Shown here one piece after another: positions 1 to 49,668 of a DNA stretch of 64,000 nt. Origin of the DNA: Nitrospirota bacterium (GTDB taxonomy: Bacteria; Nitrospirota; UBA9217). The position numbers were made by a program, and so were the translations under genes. The notes under the pieces were generated by a model. The model was not told where the DNA came from and did not search any database. It saw only the letters and a list, made by a program, of their open reading frames with translations. The stretch lies in NCBI GenBank assembly GCA_035625205.1, contig DASPQB010000253.1, forward strand, positions 4,930 to 68,929, written 5' to 3'. Position 1 is the stretch's first letter. Every line of letters starts with the position of its first letter.

Positions 1-510
1 GTTTTCTATCGGGAGAGACTGCTTCCAACGGCGCGGTTGACGCTTTCACCGGAGGAACGCACTCGGTTCGAGATCAACCTTTTCAAAGCTGTAATCAAAG
101 CAAAAAAACCGGTTCTGGCCATTTGTTACGGAGCGCAACTGGTGAATGTGGCCCTCGGCGGTAAATTATACCAGGATATTGACCAACAGATTCGTCGCCC
201 GATCGCGCATGGTCCTGCACGCAGGGGTGAAGCGGTTTTTCACGATGTCGACATCCTTGAAGGTACGCTTCTCTCGAGCATCATGGGAGTTTCCCGCATC
301 CGCGTACGAAGCGCGCACCACCAGAGCGTGAAGAACCCAGGCCGCGGGCTCCATCTCTCCGCAGTTGCCCACGACAAAGTGATCGAAGCCCTCGAGCCAA
401 GGTCTAAACAGTTCCTGCTGGCAGTACAGTGGCACCCGGAAAAAACTCCAAATGACCGATATTCCAAGAAATTATTCGCGGCATTTATCAACGCGTCAAA
501 AAAATCATAG
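1..510 (+). CDS. Class I glutamine amidotransferase-like / gamma-glutamyl hydrolase (peptidase C26, PuuD-like), 5'-truncated by window edge
   Basis: Reading frame is open from base 1. Motifs AICYGAQL (nucleophile Cys in G-x-C-x-G-x-Q context), HHQS and WHPE match the class I GATase/C26 catalytic region. Confidence 0.55.
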   Translation, partial: VFYRERLLPTARLTLSPEERTRFEINLFKAVIKAKKPVLAICYGAQLVNVALGGKLYQDIDQQIRRPIAHGPARRGEAVFHDVDILEGTLLSSIMGVSRIRVRSAHHQSVKNPGRGLHLSAVAHDKVIEALEPRSKQFLLAVQWHPEKTPNDRYSKKLFAAFINASKKS

Positions 511-2119
511 CTCGCAAAGGGCAGCCGCATCGCGCAGGCCGTTCGCGCCTCTCCTTGTCACGCTCTCTATCCTTGTATTATTTCTTTTCGCGGGATGCCA
601 TCATTCCGATGACGGCCGTCTCCCCGGCTACCTCTACCTCAGGCTGAATAGCAACCCGACAACGCTGGATCCCGCGCTGGTCACCGATGTTCTGGGAGGG
701 GCAATCACGGCCAAGCTTTTCAATGGGCTGGTCCGCTTCAACGAGAGCCTGGATATCGTTCCTGATATCGCCCGTTCCTGGAAACTCTCGGACGATCAGA
801 TGACCTACACGTTCCGCCTCCGGAGGGATGTCACGTTTGGCAACGGACGTAAGGTCACGGCCCAGGATTTTAAGTACTCTTTCGAGCGCGTACTCCAGCC
901 GCAAACGAAAGCCCCACTCACGTGGGTCCTCGATAAGATTCAAGGTGCCGGCGACGTAATTTCCGGGAAGACCAAAAGCGTGTCCGGCATCAGCGTCGTA
1001 AATGACCATACCCTCATGCTCAAACTGGAGAAGCCCTTCGGTCCGTTCCTGTCACTTCTGGCCATGACGACCGCGTATGTCGTTCCCCGCGAGGAAGTGG
1101 AACGGCTGGGTCAGGACTTTGGCACTCATCCGGCTGGAAGCGGGCCCTACGTGCTCACGGAGTGGAAGCATGGCCAGCACGTTATCCTAGCCGCGCGGGA
1201 AGATTATTTTGAAGGGAAACCGACGTTAAACGGGATATTTTACCGCGTCATCCCCGAGGACATGACCGCAGTGCTCGAATTTGAAACGGGCAGGCTCGAC
1301 GTACTTGAAATTCCGTCATCGGAATATCACCGCTATACTACTGACCCTCAATGGCGAGATCTCGTTTACGGCAGAACGGGGTTGAACACCTACTATCTGG
1401 GGCTCAATTGCACGCGTCCGCCTTTCGAAGATATCCGCGTGCGACGGGCCGTGAATTATGCAATTGATCGCCAGCACATCCTGTACACGATCTTTGAAAA
1501 ACGCGGCATCCTGGCCTCAGGGCCGATCCCTCCCGGTTTGTGGAAAAGCAAGATCTGGCCGCAGACCTCGGAGGGTTACGCGTATGATCCCCAGAAAGCG
1601 AAGGAATTGATCAGGGAGGCCGGGGCCGAAGGGACAACGATCAGGATATACATCCCGTCTGATCCGGAGGTCCTCGACATAGTCGAAGTCATCCAGGATT
1701 ATCTCGCGAAGTCAGGACTCAAGTCTGAAATAACAGAACTCGACTGGAGCGCCTTTAAACAAGCAGTGAACGAGGGAGAACCAGACGCTTTCTGGCTCTC
1801 CTGGTGGGCCGACTACCCGGACCCGGAAAATTTTCTGTTTCCCCTTTTCCATTCAGCAAGCGTAGGGTCCACTGGCAATAGAACGCGCTGCCTCGATCCG
1901 GAGCTTGACCGGCTGATCGAAACAGCTCGGAACACGATGGACGAACAGCGGCGCTACAGGATCTATCGGCAGGCCGAAAACCGCATCATCAAGGACGCTC
2001 CATGGGTATTCATGTGGCACAAGGCGGACCATTTTGTGGTGCAACCATGGGTTAAGGACTTCAGAGTATATCCTATCTATTCCATCGACAAGCGAATGGA
2101 TGTCAGGATCAACCGATGA
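452..2119 (+). CDS. ABC transporter substrate-binding protein, family 5 (peptide/nickel type), lipoprotein or Tat-like N-terminus
   Basis: 555-aa ORF. N-terminal SRRPFAPLL followed by a hydrophobic stretch and LFAGC lipobox. Length and motifs (e.g. WLSWWADYPDPENF) are typical of DppA/OppA/NikA-family solute-binding proteins. Confidence 0.8.
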   Translation: MTDIPRNYSRHLSTRQKNHSSQRAAASRRPFAPLLVTLSILVLFLFAGCHHSDDGRLPGYLYLRLNSNPTTLDPALVTDVLGGAITAKLFNGLVRFNESLDIVPDIARSWKLSDDQMTYTFRLRRDVTFGNGRKVTAQDFKYSFERVLQPQTKAPLTWVLDKIQGAGDVISGKTKSVSGISVVNDHTLMLKLEKPFGPFLSLLAMTTAYVVPREEVERLGQDFGTHPAGSGPYVLTEWKHGQHVILAAREDYFEGKPTLNGIFYRVIPEDMTAVLEFETGRLDVLEIPSSEYHRYTTDPQWRDLVYGRTGLNTYYLGLNCTRPPFEDIRVRRAVNYAIDRQHILYTIFEKRGILASGPIPPGLWKSKIWPQTSEGYAYDPQKAKELIREAGAEGTTIRIYIPSDPEVLDIVEVIQDYLAKSGLKSEITELDWSAFKQAVNEGEPDAFWLSWWADYPDPENFLFPLFHSASVGSTGNRTRCLDPELDRLIETARNTMDEQRRYRIYRQAENRIIKDAPWVFMWHKADHFVVQPWVKDFRVYPIYSIDKRMDVRINR

Positions 2120-2146
2120 TGACAGCCCCGATGAGGGAGCCCATCG

Positions 2147-2665
2147 TTAAAAAAAACGAAGTTCATCCCTGGGAGTCCTTCTCCTCTCCCGGCTGTTATC
2201 CGTCCCGCAAGAAAGAATGATGGGAGTTCGAAAATATTCCTCACCTTGAATCCCGCCGACAATCTCGGATCGCTCGACACCAGCAACGTCATGCTTTATC
2301 ACAAAACGATATGTACCGTGGCTGAATCTTTTAGTGATGCGCGGAAGAAATCTGACAGAATCCGGCGGAACATTCGGATAACTGTTTCCTCTTTTCTGCT
2401 CATCGTCACCACGAAGAATAACGTCACCGCGTGGCTTGCGAACCGTATACCGCGGGAGCTCTTGGAAAAAGGCGAAAAACCATACTGGACTCCAGTTCCA
2501 TGCATTTCCCGACCATACGTAGAATACAAGTACTGCCGCAGACAATTCAACCAAAAAAGACGGACAGAAAAAATCTGCTCGAATGAACGCCTCCTTCCCA
2601 ATGGCATGCAAAACGTGCGCTTCTTTTGTAAAAGAGTAAGTACTTCTCTCCTCCTGCGGTGTCAT
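2147..2665 (-). CDS. Hypothetical protein (weak call)
   Basis: 172-aa ORF downstream of and co-directional with the DUF1059 gene. No recognisable family. Overlapped by an equally long opposite-strand ORF, so coding status is uncertain. Confidence 0.2.
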   Translation of the reverse strand: MTPQEERSTYSFTKEAHVLHAIGKEAFIRADFFCPSFLVELSAAVLVFYVWSGNAWNWSPVWFFAFFQELPRYTVRKPRGDVILRGDDEQKRGNSYPNVPPDSVRFLPRITKRFSHGTYRFVIKHDVAGVERSEIVGGIQGEEYFRTPIILSCGTDNSRERRRTPRDELRFF

Positions 2666-2715
2666 TCATCCCCGACGAGAAGAGATCCCTACCATTCCCG
2701 TTCGGTCGTTCTTGT

Positions 2716-3123
2716 TTATCCTTTCCAGGTACGGAGAGAATTCACAACTTTCAGCTTCAGCTCAGGTGTAAACTCTGAGATGCCATGTGCCTCGCGCGCA
2801 TGAACAGCTACGCCGTCTATGATCAGATCCTCGGTTTGTGCTATGTACCTGAACCCACAATTCATTCCCAGATCTTTGCACTTAAACTCTTTGAGAACGG
2901 GCTCCTTGTCTTCCGACGGAAATTCTACGTTCTGGCCCTTGGCAAAGGTCTGCTTTATTTTGCCCACCATATCCTGGTTCAAATCAGCCACCCCGTGCAC
3001 ATCACGCAGATGTATCGCGACCACATCCGTCAACAGTTCTTCGGTCCGAGCAACATGCTTCCATCCACAATTATATCCCAAGCTCCTGCAGGCAAACTCT
3101 CTCATGACAGACCTCCTCACCAT
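2716..3123 (-). CDS. Tandem DUF1059-like small protein (two ~55-aa repeats)
   Basis: Two internal repeats: MREFACRSLGYNCGWKHVARTEELLTDVVAIHLRDVHGV and KEFKCKDLGMNCGFRYIAQTEDLIIDGVAVHAREAHGI. Pattern C-x-x-G-x-x-C-G ... H-x-x-x-x-HG resembles DUF1059. The true start may be the internal Met at MREF. Confidence 0.5.
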   Translation of the reverse strand: MVRRSVMREFACRSLGYNCGWKHVARTEELLTDVVAIHLRDVHGVADLNQDMVGKIKQTFAKGQNVEFPSEDKEPVLKEFKCKDLGMNCGFRYIAQTEDLIIDGVAVHAREAHGISEFTPELKLKVVNSLRTWKG

Positions 3124-3252
3124 AGTTTAGTATTAAAACCGTTTTTCGTATTCTTTCCTTAAATATAGCACCGGAGCAACGCATCTGCAGAAAAGGCCGT
3201 AGATTGTCGGAGGGAATAAAAAAAGAGGAAGGGATAGGGACATGCGCGCATC

Positions 3253-3285
3253 AAAAAACGCCGGCCCCTATCCAGGAAGCCGGCG
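3253..3285 (-). terminator. Rho-independent terminator downstream of ccsA
   Basis: Minus-strand reading: CGCCGGC-ttcctggatagg-GGCCGGCG stem followed by TTTTTT, ~50 nt past the ccsA stop. Confidence 0.5.
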
Positions 3286-3332
3286 TTGTGATCACACATA
3301 ACCAATTATCGGAAATAATCTCTTTTGCTCTA

Positions 3333-4628
3333 TTAATTCATTCCTCCGTAGGAGTGCAGACCGGACAGAACGAGGTTGACCCCGAGGTATGTGAAAATGA
3401 CCGCCAAAAAACCGACTGAGGAAATAACGGCCATCTGGGTGCCTTTCCAACCCCGAACATATCTGGAGTGAAGATAAATGGCGTAAACGAACCACGTAAT
3501 GAGCGACCAGGTCTCCTTGGGATCCCAACTCCAGTAGGTGCCCCAGGCGCTGTTGGCCCAGACCGCTCCGGTAATGATTCCTGCAGTGAGGAGCGGCCAT
3601 CCGATCGCTATCATGCGGTAGGTAACATCATCAAGCTGGCTCTGCACAGGGAGGTAGGGCTTCAGCAGACCCCTGAGTCCCAAACCCTTGGACCAAATAA
3701 AATAAAAGAGTGCCAGGACCGCCAGCCAGCTGATGAGCATGACGCCCGTGTTCGAATTTAAAAAGGTAGCTTCGAACATGTGCTTTTTAAATGACTCGCC
3801 TGCTGCCAGATTTTTAAAGGATATCAAATAGACAAAATCGATCCCCATGGCCACCAGCAGAACGATCGCCAGGGTCACACAGAACGACCAGAACAGGAAA
3901 ACCTGCGGCTTGTTCCTGGAGCCCGCCACAATCAGGAAGATAAACCAGGCAAGGGTCAAGACTCCCAGTCCCATCCAGAAGGCTGTCTTCATTCGGTCTC
4001 CCTGGCTTGCCATGAGATAGCCGATCGGGGCAAGTACCACGATAGCCGCAAGTGCTAAGTACAGGTTCGACCGAGAGCCCCTTTCCTCAATGTCCATTAA
4101 CAGGTATACCATGCTTATGGCAAATGCAACGCCGAAGGCCGCGTAGCCGAGGAAACTCACAAGGACGTGATAGAACAGCCAGTTGCTCTTAAGCGCCGGT
4201 ACCAAGGGCGTGATATCGGAGCTGATGCCGGCCACATTGATGAATGCAAGGGAGAGGAACGCGACGGGCATCACAAAAGCGCCGAACGCCTTTGTCTTAT
4301 ATTTGAATTCCACTACAAGATAGATTAATACGGTACTCCACGTGAAGAACACCAGCGATTCATAAAGATTGGACAGCGGTATCCTGCCGATGTCCATCTG
4401 GTAGGACTCGCGCCACCGGAGCAGCAAGGCTGCGGTCTGCACTAAAAACCCGAAAACCGTCACGATCGTGGCTGCCTGGCCGATACCGTTTTTTCGGAAG
4501 GCAAGGTAGCCGAAGTACAGCACCATCGCGACGAGATATGCCAGTGTTGCTATACTAAAAAGTAATGAACTGTTCATTGAATCCTCCTGAATAACACTTG
4601 AAGCATTTGGAAAATCTCGATCCACCAC
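3333..4628 (-). CDS. ccsA: Cytochrome c biogenesis protein CcsA/ResC (System II haem handling)
   Basis: Polytopic membrane protein with the WWD-type motif WGTYWSWDPKETWSLITW, diagnostic of CcsA/ResC/CcmF-family haem-handling proteins. Located next to resB. Confidence 0.85.
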   Translation of the reverse strand: MVDRDFPNASSVIQEDSMNSSLLFSIATLAYLVAMVLYFGYLAFRKNGIGQAATIVTVFGFLVQTAALLLRWRESYQMDIGRIPLSNLYESLVFFTWSTVLIYLVVEFKYKTKAFGAFVMPVAFLSLAFINVAGISSDITPLVPALKSNWLFYHVLVSFLGYAAFGVAFAISMVYLLMDIEERGSRSNLYLALAAIVVLAPIGYLMASQGDRMKTAFWMGLGVLTLAWFIFLIVAGSRNKPQVFLFWSFCVTLAIVLLVAMGIDFVYLISFKNLAAGESFKKHMFEATFLNSNTGVMLISWLAVLALFYFIWSKGLGLRGLLKPYLPVQSQLDDVTYRMIAIGWPLLTAGIITGAVWANSAWGTYWSWDPKETWSLITWFVYAIYLHSRYVRGWKGTQMAVISSVGFLAVIFTYLGVNLVLSGLHSYGGMN

Positions 4629-4784
4629 GGGGCATGAAGACAGGGCGAGCGCACCCCTATAAAATCAGGATGAAATAACTCTGCAAGACAGATCTTCCTG
4701 CACCGCTCACGTTCCCCAGAGCAATGTTCCTTTGTTCTCCGCCACTTGACGGGAGACTTCTTTCTTCCGGATATTCGGACCCGG

Positions 4785-6296
4785 CTACTTTAATATGTCT
4801 TCTGATATCCTGTTAAATTCTCGTTCAAACCCAATCCTGTTCCGGTTTGCGGAGCCCGCAACAAGAATGGCCGTTTGGCCATTTCGGTTCCGGATACTTA
4901 TCCATAGCTTCCGGTGAGAACCGAAGAATGCAATCGGCGGTCCGATGCAAAGCATAATGAATCCTATATAGACTACCCAAACTCCCGGATCCTTCGTGAC
5001 CTGGAGACCGGTGTAACGGGCCCCCACGAAGCCACGGTAACTGATCACATAATCCTCGGGCATATAGGGTTCCACAGAATCCGTTTTGAGGATGGTGGTA
5101 CGGTAAAGCTCCTTATTTCCTCGGTATACCTCGAGTTCCACGGCGGGGTTTATGAACTCCTGTCTTTCCGCGTTGAAATACTGTACCTGACCGGTGGAAG
5201 GACTTCTCATAGCGAAGGGCTCAAATGAGAGGACCTTGATCGTCCTGTCGATGGACGGAATATGGAGCGAGGCACCGGGGTCTATCACGACCGTCTCCCC
5301 GCCCGTCCGGTTGTCGTTTTTCTTGCGGATGTTTAACACGACCTTCCCGCGGCTCATCTGAGTCACCCCGTAGCTCGACTGATAGAAGGTTATCCCATGA
5401 AAGGTAAGAGGGTCGTTCACCCTGATCCGCTTGTCCAAGATCTTTTGGCCGTTAAGGTCGAAAATACTGAGCGTGCTATGATATTCCGAGGGCATGCCGG
5501 TCGGCATCCCCGATTGACTCATATAGTAATCGACATCGAAATTGTCGCACCGGACATAGTAACCGAGTGGCATGGCGGGAACACCTACTTGGGGATCATG
5601 GATTACCGGGCTCTCGGCAATGCCAAGCGCGGCTATGATCTGGTCCCACATTGGTTCGTTTCTGAGGTAGACCACCTGGGACGCAGATCCTTCCGGAAGG
5701 TTCAAGAACGCCTTGAACCCAAAGAACGAGCCGATAAGAGCTCCCGTAAAGATGAGAAGGATGCTCACGTGGGTAATATATACACCAAAACGGCTAAACA
5801 CCCCTTTCTGCGAGATGTACTGCGTACCGTTCGACCCTTTGGACTCCACAAAACGAAATCCCCGCGCTTTGAGCACGGCAGCAGCCTTCTCCTCGGCCTT
5901 ACCCATATCGGCCTTCAGTTGAATCTCTTTCTTGAACGGTACAGCTTTCAAGCTGTCTTCATCGATCGGTTTAAGCGGTGCTCTGGCAAGTTTCCATGTG
6001 TGTGGGAACCGCTCGAGCGTACAGATCGTAAGATTTGCCGTAAACAGAAAGAGGAGCAGAATGAACCACCATGTGTGGTACATATCGAAGAATCCCAAGG
6101 CCTCGAAGAGCTGAACCGTGCTCTGACTGTATTCCCGGAGATAGCGTTCCGGGGCCTCGTTCTGCTGGATGACGGTCCCGATGACCGACACGATCGCCAA
6201 AATGATCAGCAACACCACTGCAAGTTTTACGGACGAAAAGAATTTCCAAACCTTTTCGGCGGCGATTTCTACAATCCCTTTTTGATTTTCCAACAC
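4785..6296 (-). CDS. resB: Cytochrome c biogenesis protein ResB/Ccs1
   Basis: 503 aa. N-terminal TM helices (VKLAVVLLIILAIVSVIGTVI), a large soluble domain and a C-terminal TM helix. Classic resB-ccsA gene pair. Confidence 0.75.
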   Translation of the reverse strand: MLENQKGIVEIAAEKVWKFFSSVKLAVVLLIILAIVSVIGTVIQQNEAPERYLREYSQSTVQLFEALGFFDMYHTWWFILLLFLFTANLTICTLERFPHTWKLARAPLKPIDEDSLKAVPFKKEIQLKADMGKAEEKAAAVLKARGFRFVESKGSNGTQYISQKGVFSRFGVYITHVSILLIFTGALIGSFFGFKAFLNLPEGSASQVVYLRNEPMWDQIIAALGIAESPVIHDPQVGVPAMPLGYYVRCDNFDVDYYMSQSGMPTGMPSEYHSTLSIFDLNGQKILDKRIRVNDPLTFHGITFYQSSYGVTQMSRGKVVLNIRKKNDNRTGGETVVIDPGASLHIPSIDRTIKVLSFEPFAMRSPSTGQVQYFNAERQEFINPAVELEVYRGNKELYRTTILKTDSVEPYMPEDYVISYRGFVGARYTGLQVTKDPGVWVVYIGFIMLCIGPPIAFFGSHRKLWISIRNRNGQTAILVAGSANRNRIGFEREFNRISEDILK

Positions 6297-21705: not shown

Positions 21706-21921
21706 AGTTTTTTATACCTGCGAACATCCCGAGAGCCTCTTTTTCACTTCTCGAGGTTCCCGTAACTGGTTCCAAACTCTCAAAAAATAAAAAACCGTAT
21801 CCGGTCAGGATACGGCTCGAAAGGTCTTTGGTAATAAAATGCTCGCCTTCCCTACGCCGGCACTACCCGGATCAGGTTCTAAGGGTCGTCCTTTCGGGAC
21901 TCTCAGCCTCTTGGCTCCCCC
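21706..21921 (-). promoter_or_regulatory. TPP (THI-box) riboswitch with intrinsic-terminator expression platform, leader of thiSGEC
   Basis: Minus-strand aptamer GGGGGAGCC..GGCTGAGAGTCCC..ACCCTTAGAACCTGATCCGGGTAGTGCCGGCGTAGGGAAGG matches the THI-element consensus (CUGAGA, ACCUGAUC, GGCGUAGGGA). Followed by hairpin CCGTATCC-tgac-CGGATACGG plus a U-run (~21786-21815) before the thiS start. Confidence 0.8.
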
Positions 21922-22898
21922 AGCATACTATAGGTTAACAATACGGCAAGATAGGCATAAAGTCAATTATTTTCTCAAATCATACACGTATGCTTTTCAG
22001 TATTGCGGCAGATGAAATTGCAGGTGCCGTTTATGCTTGTTTCCTTAATCATTTAATTTGCGAGGGCACCTTGCAACAGAGCTGTTCCGAATCTACCTCC
22101 TCGTACATTCCATGATCGGCGAGACATCAGATTTCCCTGCCTTCGCCAAACGTACAACCGCCGGCACAGCGCGAGAACCGTGCTTTTTTCTCGTATCCGG
22201 ATAGCTGTTGGGCGCTCATTTCCCATTCCGTCATACCGTAAAATTTGCCTGCGCTGAAGCGTAATTTGAACTATAGGGACACTGAAACAACGCTGCCGCA
22301 TCAGTGGTCCTAGCCATAGATCAGACACGTGTCTTGCCGAGATCGTCGAGCACCATACCGGCCACAACCGAGCTCAGCTCGTACCGATTGTCTTTGGGAT
22401 ATGCACGCTCTGCGATGATCCTGCCGTTTTCTCCTTGAAGGAGAGCGCACGGTGACGAGATACGCTGGAACAAAATCGGTAAACAGACGCGACGATGGTC
22501 GAACATTATCTCCTCGATCACGCCCCTCGAACAACGGGAAGCAAACGGGGTTCTGACCTGCGACCCGGCGAGTTCCTCGCCGAAAAGGTTTTGGAGCGAC
22601 TTCTATGGCGAAGTACAAAATATTTACGTTGCTAGCCCACTATACGGACAAATATATTCAAAGTATTGTTGAAGAAAATATGATAACGGCATGTTCACCA
22701 CCCAAAATGGTTTGTCTCATTTTTGGTCATGCGTGATAGTAAAAAATGTTAGTTGACTTTCATGATGCTTTTGCATTAATATTCGCAAAATATCATTCTT
22801 TGTAATTCCATCCATGATTCCACTTCCGTTCTTTGCCAAACGATTTAGATAAAGGTCATTACGATAAACTCATCACATTCAACCAAGGAGGGTTTAAA

Positions 22899-24149
22899 AT
22901 GCGCCGTAACATCTGGTGGTGTTTGGTCATTGGATTATCTCTAATATGCATAAGTATGCCTTTTCCCGTCACAGCCAAGGAAGACTGTATAAAAGCCGCA
23001 AAACTTTCTGATGAGGCAGGCGATCTTGTTTCATCGGACCCGCAACTTGCTGAAAATAAACTTCACCAAGCGCTTTACTACTGCGATTCAAGCGCAGCAT
23101 TGCATTACAACCTTGCAATGGTCCTCATCAGCAATCAAAAACCCGCTGAAGCAGCGAAGCAGTTGGAATTCGCACTCAAGCACAATCCGAAGTATGCCAA
23201 GGCGTTGAATGCTCTTGCCTATCTCTACGCCACAAAGGCCGGAGGAGACCAGGTAAAAGCAAAGCAACTGGCCCAGAATGCCGTAGCTCTCGAACCGGAT
23301 AACGAACAGTACCGACAAACCCTCGAAATGATAACCAGCAACATCGAGGTGGCCCCCCGAACAGCAGTTCGCAGGCCCGATGCTGTAGCGATCATTATCG
23401 GCAATAAAAACTACCAGGACCGCCACATCCCGACAGTTAAATATGCGTACCAGGACGCCGCGCTGGTAAGAAAGTATCTCGTTAACACCCTTGGTTTTGA
23501 TGAGAAGAACATCGTTATGGTCAGCGATGCAAAAAAGGACGACTTTGAAAAATTTTTTGGCACTGAGAGCAATTATAAGGGGTTCTTGTACAACCATGTC
23601 ATCCAAGACCGTTCCGATATTTTTATTTACTATTCCGGCCATGGTGCACCGGACACCAATACGAAGAAAGCATACCTGGTCCCCACCAGCGCCGATCCGA
23701 GTTACATCAATATCACCGCTTATTCACTCGATCTCCTCTATGGGAACCTGGAAAAATTGGATAACGACAAAAAACCCAAAAGCATTACCGTGGTTCTCGA
23801 CTCCTGCTTTAGCGGCGGATCCAATGGGGGCATGATTATCAGGGATGCCAGCCCTATCTTCATTGAAACGACAACCCCGCTTCTTACAATGGACAACGCC
23901 GTGATATTTACCAGCTCCCAGGGTGACCAGATCAGCTCCTGGTATTCGGAAAAACAACATGGACTCTTCACGTACTTTTTCCTGAAAACGATCAAAACGG
24001 CCGCGGAAAATGGCGCTCATTTGACCGCAGAAGACATGGAAAAAGCGCTCCAGGAGCCTGACAGTATAAATGATTATGCGCGGAAATTGTACAACCGTGA
24101 ACAGGTACCCCAGATTACAGGCAATAAAAAGATAACCCTGATTCCTTAG
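22899..24149 (+). CDS. Secreted TPR-repeat protein with C-terminal caspase-like (peptidase C14) domain
   Basis: RBS AAGGAGG 7 nt upstream of the ATG at 22899. Signal peptide MRRNIWWCLVIGLSLICISMPFPVTA. TPR repeats (~aa 30-170). Caspase p20-like core with AVAIIIGNKNY, catalytic His in IYYSGHGAPD and catalytic Cys in VVLDSCFSGG. The ORF-table start at 22833 is probably too far upstream. Confidence 0.8.
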   Translation: MRRNIWWCLVIGLSLICISMPFPVTAKEDCIKAAKLSDEAGDLVSSDPQLAENKLHQALYYCDSSAALHYNLAMVLISNQKPAEAAKQLEFALKHNPKYAKALNALAYLYATKAGGDQVKAKQLAQNAVALEPDNEQYRQTLEMITSNIEVAPRTAVRRPDAVAIIIGNKNYQDRHIPTVKYAYQDAALVRKYLVNTLGFDEKNIVMVSDAKKDDFEKFFGTESNYKGFLYNHVIQDRSDIFIYYSGHGAPDTNTKKAYLVPTSADPSYINITAYSLDLLYGNLEKLDNDKKPKSITVVLDSCFSGGSNGGMIIRDASPIFIETTTPLLTMDNAVIFTSSQGDQISSWYSEKQHGLFTYFFLKTIKTAAENGAHLTAEDMEKALQEPDSINDYARKLYNREQVPQITGNKKITLIP

Positions 24150-24201
24150 TGGTCTTACAGAAAGCTTATATTGGAATGCAATGGAAAATAGGAGGACCTT
24201 G

Positions 24202-24609
24202 ATGAAAAAATTAATCGCCTTGGCCATCATGCTGTCAATCGCCATCCCCCTTCCGGTTCGCGCCGGGCTGACACCTGACTTCGAGCCCGTTGAACAGAAC
24301 TTGATTGACCAGCAAAAACAACAGGAAGAACAGGAACGCCTGCAAAAGGAGCAACAGCAGCAAGAACAGCAAAGGCTTGAAAATCAAAGAATTCAGCAGG
24401 AAATGAACAAGGGACTGCAGCAGCCTGCGCAGCTAACGCCTCAGCAGGCGCCAGTAGCGAAAAAATCAGGCTCGACCTGGTGGATATGGGTGCTTGGGAT
24501 ACTGGCTGTTGGCGGTATCGCTGCAGCCGCAGGAGGAAGTCATGGCAGCAGTAGCAGCAGTAGCAGCAGTGGCGGAGGCAGTACGGGTGCTGTCTCGGCA
24601 CATTGGTAA
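24202..24609 (+). CDS. Gln/Glu-rich coiled-coil protein with signal peptide, C-terminal TM helix and Ser/Gly tail
   Basis: RBS AGGAGG before the ATG at 24202. Signal peptide MKKLIALAIMLSIAIPLPVRAG. Low-complexity QQKQQEEQERLQKEQQQQEQQRLENQRIQQE block, TM helix WWIWVLGILAVGGIAAAAGG, poly-Ser tail. Confidence 0.5.
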   Translation: MKKLIALAIMLSIAIPLPVRAGLTPDFEPVEQNLIDQQKQQEEQERLQKEQQQQEQQRLENQRIQQEMNKGLQQPAQLTPQQAPVAKKSGSTWWIWVLGILAVGGIAAAAGGSHGSSSSSSSSGGGSTGAVSAHW

Positions 24610-24692
24610 AGCCGCATTTCCCCAGATGTCCTTCACTGACTACGAAAGGGCGCAACAGGACCAAAACAATTAACTAGAGAGGTCTTAATAAT

Positions 24693-27600
24693 ATGAAACG
24701 AATGTTCATTTTATTCCTGGCAATCAGTTTCTCTTCCTTCCTTCTCATCGGGTGCGGCTCTCAAGGATCGCAAAATAGCGCTACCGGTACCGGATCGATT
24801 GCATTTCAAGCCCAATGGCTCGGCTCGGCCCCGGTGACGCAGCAAGCACATGCTACATCCGAATCGCCTGTTATCAGGACCGCCCCTGCAAACGTTACAA
24901 CCGTCCAGTTGATTATTTCTGGTGCGGATATGGCCACGATAGGTCCAATTAGCTTCGCAGCTTCCGCAGGGGTAGGAACCATCAGCGGAGTACCAGTCGG
25001 ATCCGACCGAACACTCCTCATGCTCGGGCTAAACTCTAGCAACACTGTTGTTTACCAGGGCGTGAGCTACAACATCACTGTTACTGCAAACCAAACGTCG
25101 AATGCCGGAACGATTGTCCTGGCACCCGTTGTGGCGGGTGGACTCTCAGTCCCATGGCAAGTCGCGGTGGACTCCACTAATATTTACTGGACCGAACAAG
25201 GCACAGGGACGGCCGACGGCTTTGTGAAAAAGATGTCTATTGCGACGGGAGTGATAACCACCCTGGCAAGCGGTCTCTCCGACCCGGTGGGGATCGCCAT
25301 TGATGCAAGCTTTGTCTATTGGACGGAATACGCGCAAGGGACGACCGGCCTTGGCTCGGTCAAAAAAATCAGCATCTCGGGCGGCACAACGCCTACGGTG
25401 CTTACCTCAGGAATCTCGGGTCCCTGGGGTATAGCTGTAGATGGGACCACTGTCTACTGGACCGAATACTTGAACAGCGGTTCGGTTATGAAAATCAACA
25501 AGAATAGCATTAACAGCGCTGGCACAACCCTTGTATCTGGCCTGGCATGGCCCCTCGGGATTGTAGTGGATGCGACCAATGTGTACTGGGCGGAGAACCC
25601 AGCGAACGGCGGAGCTGTAAAGAAAATTCCTATCGGTGGAGGAGCCGCAACGACTCTTGCGACCAGTTTGAGCAGCCCCACGTATATCGCAGTGGATTCG
25701 ACGAGTGTGTACTACACAGAGTACGGTACCGAAGACACAAGCGGGAACACAATTGCCGCCTCGGGAAGCCTGAAAAAAGTATCGTTATCTGCGTCATCAT
25801 ATCCTACGACACCGACAACGCTTGCCTCCGGCCTCAACTATGCGGCAGGTATTGCAGTGGACTCAACGAACGTCTACTTCACGGAATTTGGCTTCTCAAT
25901 CGGCTCGGTCAAATACGTACCGATAAATGCCAGCAACGCCACACCGACGCCTGTTGTGATTAACCTTCCCAATGGCACGACAACATCGGCTACTGGCCTG
26001 TATGCCCCCTATTACTTGGCTATTGATCCAAGTGACCAGTACGTGTATTGGACCGAAAGCAATTCAGGAACGATCAAGCGGGCAATCACAGGTACGTCGA
26101 GCACAACCGCACCTTCTGCACCTACAGGCGTAACGGCCACTGCCGGGAATGCGCAGGTAGCTGTAAGTTGGACGGCCTCCACCGGCGCAACATCGTATAA
26201 TGTCTACTATTCAACGTCTGCCGCTGTGTCTACCTCAAGTTACATCGGTTTGATCTCAACGACAACTACCACAGCCACTGTTTATGGACTTGCTAATGGT
26301 ACAACGTATTATTTCATCGTCACTGCTGTCAACGGAGCAGGACAGAGTGCAGCATCCAGTCCAGCGGCATCAGCAGTACCTTCGGCGGTCATAACCACTC
26401 CGGCTGCTCCTACAGGTGTAACGGCCACTGCCGGGAATGCGCAGGTAGCTGTAAGTTGGACGGCCTCCACCGGCGCAACGTCGTATGATGTCTACTATTC
26501 AACGTCAGCCGCTGTGTCTACCTCAAGTTACCTCGGTTTGATCACAACAGCCACGAATTCCGCTCTTGTGTCAGGACTCACTAACAGTACAACGTATTAT
26601 TTCATCGTCACTGCTGTTAACGGCGCCGGACAGAGCGCAGCATCCAGTCCAGCGGCATCAGCAGCACCGTCGGCGGTCATAACGATACCGTCTGCTCCTA
26701 CAGGCGTAACCGCCATAGCAGGAAATGCCCAGGCGACCTTAAGTTGGACGGCCTCCACCGGCGCAACGTCGTATGATATCTACTATTCAACGTCGGCCGC
26801 CGTATCCACGTCAAGTTACATCGGTTCGTTCTCAACAACGTCGACCTCAGACATTATCTCAGGACTTACTAACAGTACGACGTATTATTTCATCGTCACT
26901 GCCGTCAACAGCGCAGGTCAAAGCACAGCGTCCACTCCAACAGTCTCTGCTATGCCATCAGCAAGTATCCTATATCAGTTCAGCTCCATAGATGTGCCCA
27001 ATGCGGTCAATACGTATGCCACCGCAATCAACAGCACCGGCCAGGTAGTTGGATACTACTGGGACTCAAGCAATATACAACACGGCTATTTACTTACTTC
27101 AGGAACATTCTCTACCATTGATTATCCGGGAGCCACGGTGGAGTGGGGGACCGAGTTGTGGGGAATTAACGATTCCGGAGCTATTGTCGGAGCACATGGT
27201 CCAGTCTACATTGGTGTTGCTTATGGTTTCGTTTTGTCCGGCGGGGTTTTCACTTCAATTAATTTCTCCACTGCCCCCGGCAGCGCTCTCGGAGCAAATG
27301 CCATGGGAATCAACAATGCCGGCCAGGTCGTGGGAGAGTATGAGGCCGGGTCTGCTCCCACTTCTTTTTGTCCGTCCTGCGTATTTCCATCAAATCCCGC
27401 TATTGGCTATTTGGATACTGCAGGGAGTTACACTGCATTTATCCCCGCAGGGTCTGGGAGTAGCACTGCCAACGGCATCAATACAGCCGGCAAGATTGTA
27501 GGCGGATACTATGACTCAAGCCTCGCGGGACACGGTTATACGTATTCTGGAGGAGTCTTTACTACTATTGATTTCCCCGGAGGGGGTGGCTCCAATTCGA

Positions 27601-27827
27601 GCAATAACAAACTTTTTAAAATCAATGATAACGGACAGATGGTGGGAGAATACGTGGACTCAACGGGCAAATGGCATGGCTATCTGTATAACGGAACTAC
27701 CTTTACAACTATTGATGTGCCCAATGCCACCGGTACGTTTACTCTTGGCATCAACAATTCTGGGCAGATCGTGGGATATTGGACCGATTCCAGCAGCAAA
27801 GCGCATGGTTTTATAGCAACGCCATGA
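24693..27827 (+). CDS. Large surface lipoprotein: YWTD-type beta-propeller + 3 fibronectin type III domains + HAF-like C-terminal repeats
   Basis: Lipoprotein signal MKRMFILFLAISFSSFLLIGCGS. Seven ~43-aa blades, each ending in a YWTE-type motif (STNIYWTEQG, SFVYWTEYA, TTVYWTEYL, TNVYWAENP, TSVYYTEYG, TNVYFTEFG, QYVYWTESN), with P-GIAVD between blades. Three 96-aa Fn3 repeats (SWTASTGATSY..YYS..TYYFIVTAVN). Six C-terminal ~45-aa repeats IN(N/D)xGQ(I/V)VG..(Y/W).DS...HG(Y/F). Confidence 0.8.
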   Translation: MKRMFILFLAISFSSFLLIGCGSQGSQNSATGTGSIAFQAQWLGSAPVTQQAHATSESPVIRTAPANVTTVQLIISGADMATIGPISFAASAGVGTISGVPVGSDRTLLMLGLNSSNTVVYQGVSYNITVTANQTSNAGTIVLAPVVAGGLSVPWQVAVDSTNIYWTEQGTGTADGFVKKMSIATGVITTLASGLSDPVGIAIDASFVYWTEYAQGTTGLGSVKKISISGGTTPTVLTSGISGPWGIAVDGTTVYWTEYLNSGSVMKINKNSINSAGTTLVSGLAWPLGIVVDATNVYWAENPANGGAVKKIPIGGGAATTLATSLSSPTYIAVDSTSVYYTEYGTEDTSGNTIAASGSLKKVSLSASSYPTTPTTLASGLNYAAGIAVDSTNVYFTEFGFSIGSVKYVPINASNATPTPVVINLPNGTTTSATGLYAPYYLAIDPSDQYVYWTESNSGTIKRAITGTSSTTAPSAPTGVTATAGNAQVAVSWTASTGATSYNVYYSTSAAVSTSSYIGLISTTTTTATVYGLANGTTYYFIVTAVNGAGQSAASSPAASAVPSAVITTPAAPTGVTATAGNAQVAVSWTASTGATSYDVYYSTSAAVSTSSYLGLITTATNSALVSGLTNSTTYYFIVTAVNGAGQSAASSPAASAAPSAVITIPSAPTGVTAIAGNAQATLSWTASTGATSYDIYYSTSAAVSTSSYIGSFSTTSTSDIISGLTNSTTYYFIVTAVNSAGQSTASTPTVSAMPSASILYQFSSIDVPNAVNTYATAINSTGQVVGYYWDSSNIQHGYLLTSGTFSTIDYPGATVEWGTELWGINDSGAIVGAHGPVYIGVAYGFVLSGGVFTSINFSTAPGSALGANAMGINNAGQVVGEYEAGSAPTSFCPSCVFPSNPAIGYLDTAGSYTAFIPAGSGSSTANGINTAGKIVGGYYDSSLAGHGYTYSGGVFTTIDFPGGGGSNSSNNKLFKINDNGQMVGEYVDSTGKWHGYLYNGTTFTTIDVPNATGTFTLGINNSGQIVGYWTDSSSKAHGFIATP
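26100..26963 (+). repeat. Three tandem 288-bp near-identical repeats (the Fn3-encoding units) inside the lipoprotein gene
   Basis: Repeat landmark ACAGG(C/T)GTAAC(G/C)GCCA at 26124, 26412 and 26700 (period exactly 288 bp). Copies 1 and 2 are nearly identical at nucleotide level over >250 bp; copy 3 is more diverged. Confidence 0.85.
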
Positions 27828-27883
27828 CGGAACCGTCCAGGCAGTCGGTGGGTTGAACAGCAGTCGTACACTGCGTTCAGCAA

Positions 27884-27919
27884 CAAAAAAAGGCAGGCCA
27901 TGTTGGCCTGCCTTTTTTT
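27884..27919. terminator. Bidirectional rho-independent terminator between convergent genes
   Basis: AAAAAAA-AGGCAGGCC-atgtt-GGCCTGCCT-TTTTTT: perfect 9-bp GC-rich stem with an A-run and a T-run on either side, 57 nt after the 24693..27827 stop. Confidence 0.75.
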
Positions 27920-28244
27920 ATCGAGAGCCCTAACCCATCTTCCGCAGTTAAAAATTCAAAGTTCCAATAAATCAGTTTCTTAGCTCGCACAATTGGCAAA
28001 AGTCGGCACTACACGCGGTTTTTAAAAATCACCAGTAAAAAAATCAATATGTTGGTTGCTCAAATCGGCTCAAAATAGTTTAAAAGATGATCAATCTGCG
28101 GAAGATGGGCTAGCGTTACATTTGGGGCTTCCTTACATCCGTTTTTCTTGATATGCATCCGTCTGATTCGGGTCTTGCAGAGGGATTGGAAATCTGCAAC
28201 ATCCCCTCCACAAATTAGACGAATCATCTGCCAGCACGACGTTG

Positions 28245-29090
28245 TTACTCTCTCACCTCATACCCCACCGTACTTTCCGCCCACAGCGAGGGATCGAGGT
28301 CTGACAGCTCTTTCATCAGATCAGTAATTGTGGGGTTTTCCAGGGATTTGTCGGCAAGGAGCGATGTTTTTTCTTTCGTGGCGATCACGAGTACAGATTC
28401 GATAGATTGTTTTACTCCCTTGGGTGTCTTCACCTTAAGCCGGAGCCCCCGGTCCCTGGTAGTGTTATCGGGGAATATGAACTCTGTTTCCCCGGCCAGA
28501 GCAGCCTTCTGCTGCTTAACGTAAGAATTCGGATAGAGTTTGCTTACGTTCCCGTACTGGTCCACGCTGAAAAGCTGGAGGAATGCGTCTTCATTGGTAG
28601 TGATCCGAATCTGAATCTCGTCATTATTCTGGAAGACTGGGCTCTTTGCCGCAAGATCCATGTCCGGCCTCTGTACCGAAGCCGATGTGATCGAGAAATT
28701 CCCTTTTCTTTCGATATTGAGCGGCTTTATGGATGCCTTAATCTTGGCAACGCACAGAAAACGCCCATCCGCAATTTTACAGGAGTTATCCAGAAGTTGT
28801 TCCTGGACGATAATCCCCTTGGTCGCCGTCCTTACCAGATCGTTGATAAGGATATTATTGTACACGACCGATGAACCACGCACCTCTATCCCCGTCGCTT
28901 TTTCAAGTGCATCCCTGCGAGCGTTGTTCAAGGCCGTGACCTTGCCTTGGGACATGGTAGCGTCCTCTCCCAGATTCGCCTGTCCTTCGCCTTCTACCAC
29001 TTTTAACTCGTCAGCGGCAAAGAGCGGTGATAAGATCATGAAAAATACTACTATGAGGAACAGCAGTCTGAGAATTATAGTCTTCGTCAT
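28245..29090 (-). CDS. Secreted LPP20-like N-terminal domain + DUF4384-like C-terminal domain protein
   Basis: RBS AAGGGAG before the ATG. Signal peptide MTKTIILRLLFLIVVFFMILSPLFAADE. N-terminal GEGQANLGEDATMSQGKVTALNNARRDALEKATGIEV resembles LPP20/FlgP. C-terminal DEIQIRITTNEDAFLQLFSVDQYGNVSKLYPN ... FIFPD ... VLVIATKE resembles the DUF4384 pattern. Confidence 0.55.
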   Translation of the reverse strand: MTKTIILRLLFLIVVFFMILSPLFAADELKVVEGEGQANLGEDATMSQGKVTALNNARRDALEKATGIEVRGSSVVYNNILINDLVRTATKGIIVQEQLLDNSCKIADGRFLCVAKIKASIKPLNIERKGNFSITSASVQRPDMDLAAKSPVFQNNDEIQIRITTNEDAFLQLFSVDQYGNVSKLYPNSYVKQQKAALAGETEFIFPDNTTRDRGLRLKVKTPKGVKQSIESVLVIATKEKTSLLADKSLENPTITDLMKELSDLDPSLWAESTVGYEVRE

Positions 29091-32534: not shown

Positions 32535-32610
32535 TGGAGCGGGCGACGGGTCTCGAACCCGCGACCCCAAGCTTGGGAAGCTTGTACTCTACCAGCTGAG
32601 CTACGCCCGC
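32535..32610 (-). tRNA. tRNA-Gly (anticodon CCC)
   Basis: Minus-strand sequence GCGGGCGTAGCTCAGCTGGTAGAGTACAAGCTTCCCAAGCTTGGGGTCGCGGGTTCGAGACCCGTCGCCCGCTCCA. Perfect 7-bp acceptor stem, D arm, anticodon stem CAAGC/GCTTG with loop TTCCCAA, T arm GTTCGAGAC, encoded CCA. Confidence 0.85.
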
Positions 32611-48874: not shown

Positions 48875-49668
48875 GCAAAAAAATGTCGTCATTCATCGGC
48901 TTGCTGCAGAGAAGAACTTTCACGAGGGAAGATTAAAATATTATAACACAGCAACAGGCAAGAGAGAACGCTCAGGGATGTCATAGCTCATGTTGACGTA
49001 CTCCCAACGCTAAAGAACGTAGGGCTACCCACGCCATTTCCCTAAACGTAAATCGGGATAGGGGGGAGCCTCTCGGCTCCTCCCCTCCCACACCGTGCGT
49101 ACGGCTGCGTACACGGCAGTTCGGCTGGTTAAGCGAACGCTTCTCGCCTCGCTTTGGGTAGGCAGTGTTTCGCAAGCGTTTCGGTCCTTGTCGGTGTCCC
49201 TCGGGGCTTCACCCCTACCTTCACCGTGAACAGCTATACTGGATTTTCTGCCGCATTACGTTGGCAGTTTCATCCTACATGCAACTCCAACCGTTTGGGC
49301 CTTCGCCCCGCCACGGGACTATGATGCCCTCTGCGGACTTCTGCGCCACGGTCAGGAAACCTCACGGCTCCCTCAGTCTCGATTCCGGGACATGACGCAG
49401 ATCTCCCGAGGTAAATTCGACCGCCTTCCGCGCACAACCGCTGGATTTACGCCCTGCGCCTTTGATGGATGTCGACATCGCGATCATTTGCCCGCTCGTG
49501 GGGCACTCACGCCTCATAGCCGGTTTTTGTTCATCGGCTCGCGCGTTTGCTCCACGCTTCTTTCAGACCCCGCGTCTCGATGAAGCCCTTGCGCTTCGCT
49601 AACCCTTCGCCTCCATCAGGCTGGGTAGCGGACTCGCACCTCCAAACTGTCGAACATGCTCGGCACAC

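Follow-up and report, generated by a model that had tools for sequence, protein, structure and literature searches.

Introduction

What might a caspase-family protease do outside the cytoplasm, and with which partners would it act? The question is raised by a stretch of 64,000 nucleotides (nt) from a Nitrospirota bacterium (NCBI GenBank assembly GCA_035625205.1, contig DASPQB010000253.1, positions 4,930 to 68,929 of the forward strand), the whole of which is called the window here. Four neighbouring genes of this window, g1 to g4, encode a tetratricopeptide repeat (TPR)-caspase, a small membrane protein, a large putative lipoprotein and a DUF4384 protein, all of them with export-type N-termini. 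Bacterial caspase homologues are plentiful and, to our knowledge, almost none has a known substrate; the debate surrounding them has focused on cytoplasmic roles in cell death. A conserved protease-partner set that is predicted to lie outside the cytoplasm offers a concrete case that is amenable to testing.

Here, we describe a computational analysis of the four genes and of their relatives in other genomes. The set recurs in unrelated uncultured bacteria, which argues that it is a real, uncharacterised envelope module. We tentatively favour a reading in which g1 to g4 form a dedicated envelope protease cassette that processes or releases its own lipoprotein; in this reading the g4 product would be either a second substrate or a subunit for docking or regulation.

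Results

The four genes encode proteins with export signals

The features of the locus are given below in window coordinates, with the evidence in brackets; related loci are designated by L and a number.

22899..24149, plus strand: g1, exported TPR-caspase of 416 amino acids (aa) (Pfam, NCBIfam, homologue alignment, AlphaFold/Foldseek)
24202..24609, plus strand: g2, small exported membrane protein of 135 aa (alignment of a family of 19 members, ribosome-binding site and start codon)
24693..27827, plus strand: g3, polymorphic lipoprotein of 1044 aa (Pfam, NCBIfam, repeat counts, N-domain family, swap relative to L001)
27885..27919, no strand: bidirectional intrinsic terminator (perfect 16-nt inverted repeat, stem GGCAGGCCA, A7/T7 flanks)
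28245..29090, minus strand: g4, exported DUF4384 protein of 281 aa (Pfam, AlphaFold model, adjacency counts, L100)

All four open reading frames (ORFs) that an earlier, sequence-only inspection of this DNA (the original prediction) had placed here were found. It had also proposed that every one of them encodes an exported protein. A rule-based check of the N-termini, which looks for basic residues followed by a hydrophobic stretch, agrees with this proposal: each of the four proteins begins with two basic residues and then a strongly hydrophobic stretch. The same kind of N-terminus is present on 69 of the 79 caspase ORFs in related loci.

The g1 product is probably an exported protease with a working active site

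The g1 start codon (ATG, 22899) is preceded by AGGAGG at a distance of 7 nt, and the protein opens with a signal peptide (aa 1-26) in which MRRN is followed by a hydrophobic run ending in VTA, with KE as the next residues. A TPR region (aa ~30-147, with several TPR models matching aa 66-141) precedes a Peptidase_C14 domain (PF00656; aa 163-407, nt 23385-24119; E=1.7e-14, 54.5 bits, cutoff 21.4). In an alignment of 10 homologues reaching down to 39% identity, the catalytic residues His248 (YSGHGAPD, nt 23640-23642) and Cys303 (LDSCFSG, nt 23805-23807) are invariant, so that the original description of a TPR protein ending in a C14 domain with an intact His/Cys dyad holds. Asp186 and Asp301, the latter within the D-x-C motif, are likewise invariant in this alignment, as are Cys30 and Cys62 of the TPR part, a pattern that is compatible with a periplasmic disulfide. 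Taken together with the predicted fold, these features indicate that g1 is probably an exported protease with a working active site.

Structure prediction bears out the expected metacaspase/paracaspase fold. The AlphaFold model of g1 has a predicted local distance difference test (pLDDT) score of 84.7, and a Foldseek search with it recovered MALT1 (8v4x, 1.8e-9), Yca1, the Candida and Arabidopsis metacaspases, and caspases 1, 3, 7 and 9. The TPR part resembles three-repeat TPR domains such as that of SGT and is probably a docking surface for partners or substrates. A sequence search of the PDB returned no close solved relative of the caspase domain. The D-x-C motif is characteristic of Arg/Lys-specific metacaspases and paracaspases, while a Q-x-C motif marks the Asp-specific caspases. 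The acidic S1 residues of g1 (Asp186 and the D-x-C residue Asp301) thus suggest cleavage of the Arg/Lys type at P1. Orthocaspases are reported to cut after basic residues (PMC6426788).

The g2 product defines a family of small membrane proteins

The translation start of g2 is the ATG at 24202, which lies behind an AGGAGG sequence and agrees with the start in all homologues; an alternative start at 24181 was rejected on both grounds. No family in Pfam or NCBIfam matches this protein. Its predicted signal peptide ends in …PVRA, with G as the next residue, and is followed by a conserved DFEPVEQNLI motif. In the 19 aligned family members the signal peptide is succeeded, just past the predicted cleavage site, by DF(E/D)PVE(Q/K)xLI, then by a variable charged linker, a hydrophobic/Gly-zipper segment (WWKW-ALGxxxVGGxAAAAGGGGG), and a Gly/Ser tail that closes with an invariant C-terminal Trp. 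A gene for a lipoprotein with the g3-type N-terminal domain (N-domain) always adjoins the family's genes. The product had been described as a Gln-rich coiled-coil protein with a C-terminal transmembrane helix. Of this description the helix stands, as a hydrophobic segment at aa 95-113, while the Gln-rich part is confined to the closest relatives, that is, to the lineage of the window.

The g3 lipoprotein combines a constant N-terminal handle with exchangeable payloads

The g3 protein is a lipoprotein by the lipobox rule, with lipidation predicted from the sequence motif, and is built from the following parts, all on the plus strand.

24753-24755: Cys21 of the lipobox L-I-G-C21 (rule [LVI][ASTVI][GAS]C)
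24783-25130: N-terminal "handle" domain, aa ~31-146 (family conservation)
25131-26087: YWTD propeller of seven blades (Ldl_recept_b, 32.9 bits, cutoff 21; [VI]Y[WYF][TA]E)
26088-26972: three fn3 modules (fn3, E=3.3e-27, 95 bits, cutoff 25)
26973-27824: six HAF repeats (HAF_rpt TIGR02913, 62.4 bits, cutoff 22.65)

All of these profiles exceed their cutoffs, and the predicted architecture of a 1044-aa lipoprotein with a YWTD propeller, three Fn3 modules and HAF repeats was thereby recovered, with the blades now counted at seven and the repeats at six. The handle domain has no match in Pfam or NCBIfam, and a search of PDB sequences yielded a marginal fn3-like match and no close solved relative. 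A word-indexed homologue search with the first 160 aa of g3 found nothing; an exhaustive phmmer search with the same residues brought to light 639 cluster representatives (E<=1e-3), in which the match is always N-terminal, the proteins being 127-1753 aa long. Among 72 members of the family the lipobox Cys does not vary. These lipoproteins have in common the lipobox and a beta-rich N-domain of ~115 aa, after which they diverge completely, the payloads including fn3, Lcl_C, CarboxypepD_reg, Laminin_G_3, RCC1, PKD, NHL, YWTD and FGE-sulfatase domains.

Payload exchange is also seen between close relatives. The window g3 and its orthologue in L001 are 79% identical up to residue 744, and their last ~300 residues are unrelated (HAF against Kelch), the swapped region being 26920-27827 in the window as compared with 10792-13944 in L001. 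The neighbouring proteins of these two loci are 89% (g1) and 94% (ThiG) identical. As judged from these comparisons, the exchange of the C-terminal cassette between the window and L001 is recent.

Three further ideas about this family were tried and set aside. One was that a basic residue ahead of the handle's APxGV strand marks a conserved cleavage site; it was dropped, an Arg or Lys being present within four residues in only 14 of 48 members. A conserved lipoprotein C-terminus (…VP) fails across the 72 members. The possibilities that the handle is a divergent DUF4384 domain, or that g2 resembles part of g4, were rejected at hhalign probabilities of <=0.2%.

The g1-g2-g3 order recurs in unrelated genomic contexts

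Eighty loci were fetched from GTDB genomes by means of a caspase alignment, and their six-frame ORFs were searched with hidden Markov models (HMMs) built from g4, from the small protein and from the N-terminal part of the lipoprotein. Over all look-ups the order g1, g2, g3 recurs in ~20 loci, non-syntenic ones included, which answers in the affirmative the question of whether the neighbourhood is conserved. Four loci that are syntenic with the window (L001, L002, L005 and L007; g1 identity 89-52%) share one arrangement, in which a thiamine operon is followed by the caspase, the small protein, the large lipoprotein, usually a DUF4384 gene, and a cobalamin operon. Two loci with unrelated flanks and 42-43% identity (L008, L009) retain the caspase, the small protein and one or more lipoproteins in that order. 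The HMM search placed a small protein and a lipoprotein N-domain after the caspase in L011-L013, L015 and L018, and gave weaker matches at the same position in L031, L039 and L067. The same succession of caspase, small protein and N-domain lipoprotein thus stands between differing flanks in L008, L009, L011-L013, L015, L018, L096 and L100. At least four paralogous cassettes are carried on different contigs by a single metagenome-assembled genome (MAG), Modern_marine.mb.199 (JAHJAA01; L012-L015).

A metagenome scan seeded with g2 returned seven loci, a small number because confirmation used the low-complexity window sequence; where the contig is long enough, a caspase lies upstream, a lipoprotein downstream, or both. 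In a neighbour-joining tree the TPR-caspases of cassette loci group together, along with that of L019, in which no partner was detected. On the evidence of these gene neighbourhoods, g2 and g3 are the tightest pair and the caspase is their usual companion.

A constant signal and a variable cargo beside a constant enzyme might also be expected of a sortase-like transamidase, in which g1 would ligate the lipoprotein or g2 to an envelope component, in the manner of PorU, GPI8 and legumain-type ligases, the sorting signal being the g2 Trp or the handle. The invariance of the C-terminal residue of g2, a weak match of g1 to Peptidase_C13 (the legumain/GPI8 family; E=2.7e-4), and a small-protein/lipoprotein pair in L102 which suggests that one enzyme may serve unlinked pairs all speak for such an activity. 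At 21 bits, however, the C13 match falls short of its cutoff of 22.8, what is conserved in the cargo lies at the N-terminus, where a lipid anchor is already predicted, the lipoprotein C-termini are not conserved, and cassettes are duplicated whole rather than as one enzyme for many cargos. We regard transamidation as very unlikely.

The exchange of payloads raises another possibility, namely envelope surveillance or defence, in which the lipoprotein would sense phage, predators or toxins and the caspase would then damage the cell's own envelope or the invader, as a periplasmic counterpart of sensor-protease conflict systems. The payload swap between close relatives suggests diversifying selection, four cassettes are present in one MAG, and in L005, L007, L008 and L092 insertions of toxin-antitoxin genes are a repeated finding within the cassettes or next to them. 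FGE-sulfatase (C-type-lectin-like) domains turn up again and again, whether as payloads, in fusions or in neighbouring genes, and such domains have been proposed to be antigen sensors with caspase or trypsin effectors (PMC10907252). Against this stand the results of searches for known defence components. PADLOC-DB 2.0 matched g1 to its generic caspase model only (E=4.3e-10) and gave no match for g2, g3 or g4, and no known defence system fits. The NCBIfam model of the EACC1-associated caspase (NF047832) scored 64.7 bits on g1, far under its cutoff of 140, with no EACC1 or NTPase gene at the locus, and NTPase, adaptor and toxin domains are absent. The window cassette, moreover, sits between a thiamine and a cobalamin operon and not in a defence island, and no diversity-generating retroelement is nearby. 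A defensive role is, in our estimate, unlikely.

A third alternative is that g1 is a signalling protease, whose cleavage of g4, g2 or g3 would make or remove a ligand for membrane receptors, such as CHASE2 cyclases, with an effect on a second messenger. Genes for CHASE2 adenylate/guanylate cyclases lie near caspases in ~8 loci, L100 included, and caspase-CHASE2 fusions are on record (PMC3501461). The association is nevertheless a minority one (7 of 86 loci), and no CHASE2 gene was called in the 8-10 kb flanks of the loci of the window lineage, so that we consider a signalling role most improbable.

Two sets of observations concern the surroundings of the cassette in its relatives. Small mobile modules, comprising MNT/HepT, PIN/PhdYeFM, ParE, VapBC and HicAB as well as a 23S_rRNA_IVP gene, lie in or beside the cassette (L005 10341-10700 and 18038-19242; L007 13430-14809; L008 10334-10833; L092 2907-4209), and the locus looks like an insertion hotspot. 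Genes for envelope stress or signalling (Peptidase_M48, LemA, TPM_phosphatase and CHASE2 adenylate/guanylate cyclases) also recur nearby, at L100 8788-12254, L008 13485-16011 and L102 2471-3993, and in L011, L013, L022, L062, L067, L075 and L082.

The g4 product is a DUF4384 protein recurrently encoded beside exported caspases

The g4 protein carries a DUF4384 domain (PF14326; aa 153-240, nt 28371-28634; E=1.8e-13, 50.8 bits, cutoff 27), as had been predicted, and the domain was matched in all 32 aligned homologues. Its signal peptide is type-I-like and ends in …SPLFA, with AD as the next residues; there is no lipobox and no Cys at this place. In the AlphaFold model (pLDDT 82) a signal helix is followed by an alpha/beta N-domain (aa 30-123), and the DUF4384 domain forms a beta-sandwich, with a C-terminal helix and strand folding back against the protein. 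No close solved relative was found among PDB sequences. One further segment of the protein drew attention: aa 67-80 (window ~28851-28892, minus strand; GIEVRGSSVVYNNILI) include the invariant residues Tyr77 and Asn78, and aa 72-79 form the sole low-confidence part of the model (pLDDT below 50). Conserved and yet apparently flexible, this loop is a possible site of interaction or of cleavage.

The LPP20 label that g4 had also been given was not upheld. LPP20 (PF02169) has no match in g4 even at E<=1, no LPP20 structure appeared among the fold matches, and hhalign comparison of the N-domain with neighbouring LPP20-like lipoproteins gave a probability of 1.7%. LPP20 rises above its cutoff only in two longer relatives (P0193, P0212), as an extra N-terminal domain. 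With no support from profile, fold or hhalign, the notion of an LPP20-like N-domain in g4 is rejected or unproven.

Across many phyla, g4 is associated with exported caspases. A g4-like gene stands beside an exported caspase on the same strand in 33 of ~89 loci, and no neighbour family other than that of g4 (38 of 86 loci) recurs widely, in line with the suggestion that DUF4384 is repeatedly adjacent to bacterial caspases. The gene lies directly 3' of the caspase on the same strand in 20 loci, and 5' of it in 11 to 12, often with an FGE-sulfatase/beta-sandwich gene between; placement on the opposite strand is confined to the window lineage. These loci come from Nitrospinota, Nitrospirota, Bacteroidota, Cloacimonadota, Calditrichia, Elusimicrobiota, Marinimicrobia and other groups. 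Caspase genes also adjoin the nearest g4 homologues beyond the syntenic lineage (L016, L020 and L040; E 1e-90 to 1e-110).

Look-ups from two other seeds gave corresponding results. That with a g4 homologue placed it directly upstream of a gene for a 1090-aa CARDB-C14 protein (L090), and that with an N-domain lipoprotein from the phmmer search led to L100, in which genes for a DUF4384 protein, a TPR-C14 protein, a small protein ending in …VSW and an N-domain lipoprotein follow one another co-directionally. The L100 proteins share 51% (g4) and 52% (g1) identity with their window counterparts, and the genes on either side bear no relation to those that flank the window set. The four genes thus co-occur in another genome and in a different context, which supports a four-gene module. 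In L090, a run of genes for LPP20-like lipoproteins, small unknown proteins and a trypsin-like protease (413-5588) lies upstream of the g4 homologue and the CARDB-C14 gene, so that the envelope protease locus may be more extensive there.

An alternative that is compatible with the other readings is that g1 to g3 alone are the unit, with g4 an unrelated neighbour kept in place by synteny with the cob operon. In the window, g4 is on the opposite strand, past the terminator and 74 base pairs (bp) after cobC, and it has the same position in L001, L002, L007 and L101; L005 is without it, as are most of the non-syntenic g1-g2-g3 loci. Elsewhere, however, no family stands immediately beside exported caspases more often than that of g4, L100 has all four genes contiguous and co-directional in a different context, and the meeting of two rare families within 4 kb by chance is improbable. 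We consider it rather unlikely that g4 is a bystander. The distribution of the genes indicates that the link of g4 to the cassette is looser than the link among g1 to g3, and g4 is probably a broader, ancestral partner of the caspase clade.

Transcriptional layout and surroundings of the window locus

The g1-g2 and g2-g3 gaps measure 52 bp and 83 bp; each gene is preceded by a ribosome-binding site, and a search of the two gaps found no terminator-like site on the plus strand, a layout that fits an operon of g1 to g3. The terminator at 27885-27919 begins 58 nt past the g3 stop codon and has a counterpart hairpin in L001. Its perfect 16-nt stem and A7/T7 flanks agree with the strong bidirectional terminator that had been said to set off the convergent g4. 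Since g4 lies downstream of cobC on the strand of the cob operon, it is probably transcribed separately from g1-g3.

Further features of the window were noted in passing. The interval from the terminator to the 3' end of g4 contains an 18-nt inverted repeat (CTAACCCATCTTCCGCAG / CTGCGGAAGATGGGCTAG) whose arms enclose 148 nt (27930-28113). The ~200-bp stretch that holds it is missing from the equivalent intergenic region of L001 and has no second copy in the window; it may be a small insertion, similar to a miniature inverted-repeat transposable element, or a regulatory element. Upstream of g1, ~870 bp (21960-22830) are without a convincing ORF, two minus-strand ORFs of ~100 aa in this stretch having no Pfam match, and the matching gap in relatives is ~400 bp; the region could be an extended leader or promoter, or what is left of a gene that has decayed. 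A thiamine pyrophosphate riboswitch (21831-21931, minus strand; 69.4 bits) precedes the thiS-thiG-thiE-thiC operon, which adjoins the cassette. Elsewhere in the window are a tRNA gene (32538-32610, minus strand; Rfam, 64.8 bits) and a mobile group II intron, of which domains D1-D4 were detected (49298-49584, minus strand; RF02001 94 bits, RF01998 43 bits).

Discussion

The genes g1 to g4 encode proteins with export-type N-termini, one of which has the domain content, intact dyad and predicted fold of a caspase-family protease, and the order of g1, g2 and g3 is conserved between unrelated flanks. The lipoprotein partner has a constant handle and a variable payload, and adjacency of caspase and DUF4384 genes is recurrent. 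We infer that proteolytic processing or release of the binding part of the lipoprotein would be the most economical mechanism to unite these features. In the dedicated envelope protease cassette that we tentatively favour, g1 would be a Sec-exported cysteine endopeptidase of the caspase/orthocaspase family that cuts after Arg or Lys. Held at the membrane near g2, it would recognise the constant N-terminal handle of the g3 lipoprotein and process this protein, whether for its maturation, for its turnover, or to free its binding domains from the lipid anchor. The C-terminal binding domains (propeller, fn3 and HAF in the window) are the parts that are exchanged freely across lineages, and g4 would be either a second substrate or a stoichiometric subunit with a docking or regulatory role. 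The outcome would be control over which binding domains the cell displays or sheds.

Several findings weigh against this proposal. If g2 makes a single pass through the inner membrane, its invariant C-terminal Trp would be cytoplasmic and beyond a periplasmic TPR domain. No conserved cleavage motif could be defined, a basic residue before APxGV of the handle being present in only part of the family, and fold searches with g4 returned only generic Ig-like, macroglobulin-domain or beta-sandwich matches. The small-protein/lipoprotein pair of L102 has neither a caspase nor g4 within 7 kb, so that the caspase is not obligatorily linked to the pair. Finally, g4 is missing from L005 and from most non-syntenic g1-g2-g3 loci, and in the window it lies on the opposite strand, behind the cob operon.

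A more specific version of the cassette proposal, and one that we hold to be rather unlikely, is a previously undescribed display-and-release system. In such a system the periplasmic TPR-caspase would be tethered via the Trp tail or the DFxPVE motif of g2. It would recognise the constant handle that hundreds of polymorphic surface lipoproteins have in common and would cleave these proteins, so as to move the cell between display and release of exchangeable binding modules, and the DUF4384 protein would gate the protease. If this were true, clan-CD proteases would have in DUF4384 a general partner domain, periplasmic in the present case and cytoplasmic in that of Csx29-Csx30. Resolving the cassette could give DUF4384 its first function, define two new protein families, and show by what means surface binding proteins are remodelled or released in uncultured bacteria, Nitrospirota-like and other.

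The original prediction had held an all-extracytoplasmic caspase with dedicated partners to be undescribed. This stands for the cassette, a literature search having found no paper on it, on the small protein or on the handle domain. It does not stand for caspase export as such, in that surveys of prokaryotic C14 proteins have already catalogued N-terminal transmembrane or signal segments, TPRs, FGE-sulfatase domains and extracellular domains (PMC3501461). A link between DUF4384 and a protease is also on record: the TPR-CHAT protease Csx29 cuts Csx30 inside its C-terminal domain, of which DUF4384 is one class (bioRxiv 10.1101/2022.08.17.504292). The novelty therefore lies in the cassette and in two partner families that have no model in Pfam or NCBIfam.

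Among known systems, g1 is closest to the C14 orthocaspases and metacaspases (MEROPS C14, clan CD), with which it shares the profile, the His/Cys dyad, the D-x-C motif, the predicted fold and TPR fusions. It differs from them in belonging to a conserved cassette with three exported partner proteins. The characterised orthocaspases are cytoplasmic cyanobacterial enzymes, and we know of no characterised prokaryotic C14 member that acts in the periplasm with dedicated partners.

The Type III-E Craspase likewise fuses TPRs to a clan-CD protease, and its partner can carry DUF4384. Csx29, in contrast, is a CHAT protease that is cytoplasmic, bound to Cas7-11 and activated by RNA, whereas g1 is a C14 protease among proteins with export signals. 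No cas gene was seen among window ORFs of >=80 aa at 18-34 kb or in the locus gene tables, and an Rfam scan gave no CRISPR family. As far as these comparisons go, the likeness to Craspase is an analogy and not membership.

The LapG/LapD/LapA system also pairs a periplasmic cysteine protease with a membrane partner, and a conserved N-terminal module is cut in it to free variable adhesive repeats. The families of that system were not found at the window locus in Pfam and NCBIfam searches. LapG is a C93 transglutaminase-like protease, LapA is an RTX adhesin secreted by a type I secretion system rather than a lipoprotein, and LapD is a receptor for cyclic di-GMP.

PorU of the type IX secretion system (T9SS), together with the clan-CD transamidases, offers a further parallel, and T9SS genes are absent from the window locus. 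There, too, an envelope clan-CD enzyme acts on cargo that joins a constant sorting module to variable domains. The T9SS uses a C-terminal domain as its signal; in the cassette described here, by contrast, the module that stays constant is N-terminal and predicted to be lipidated.

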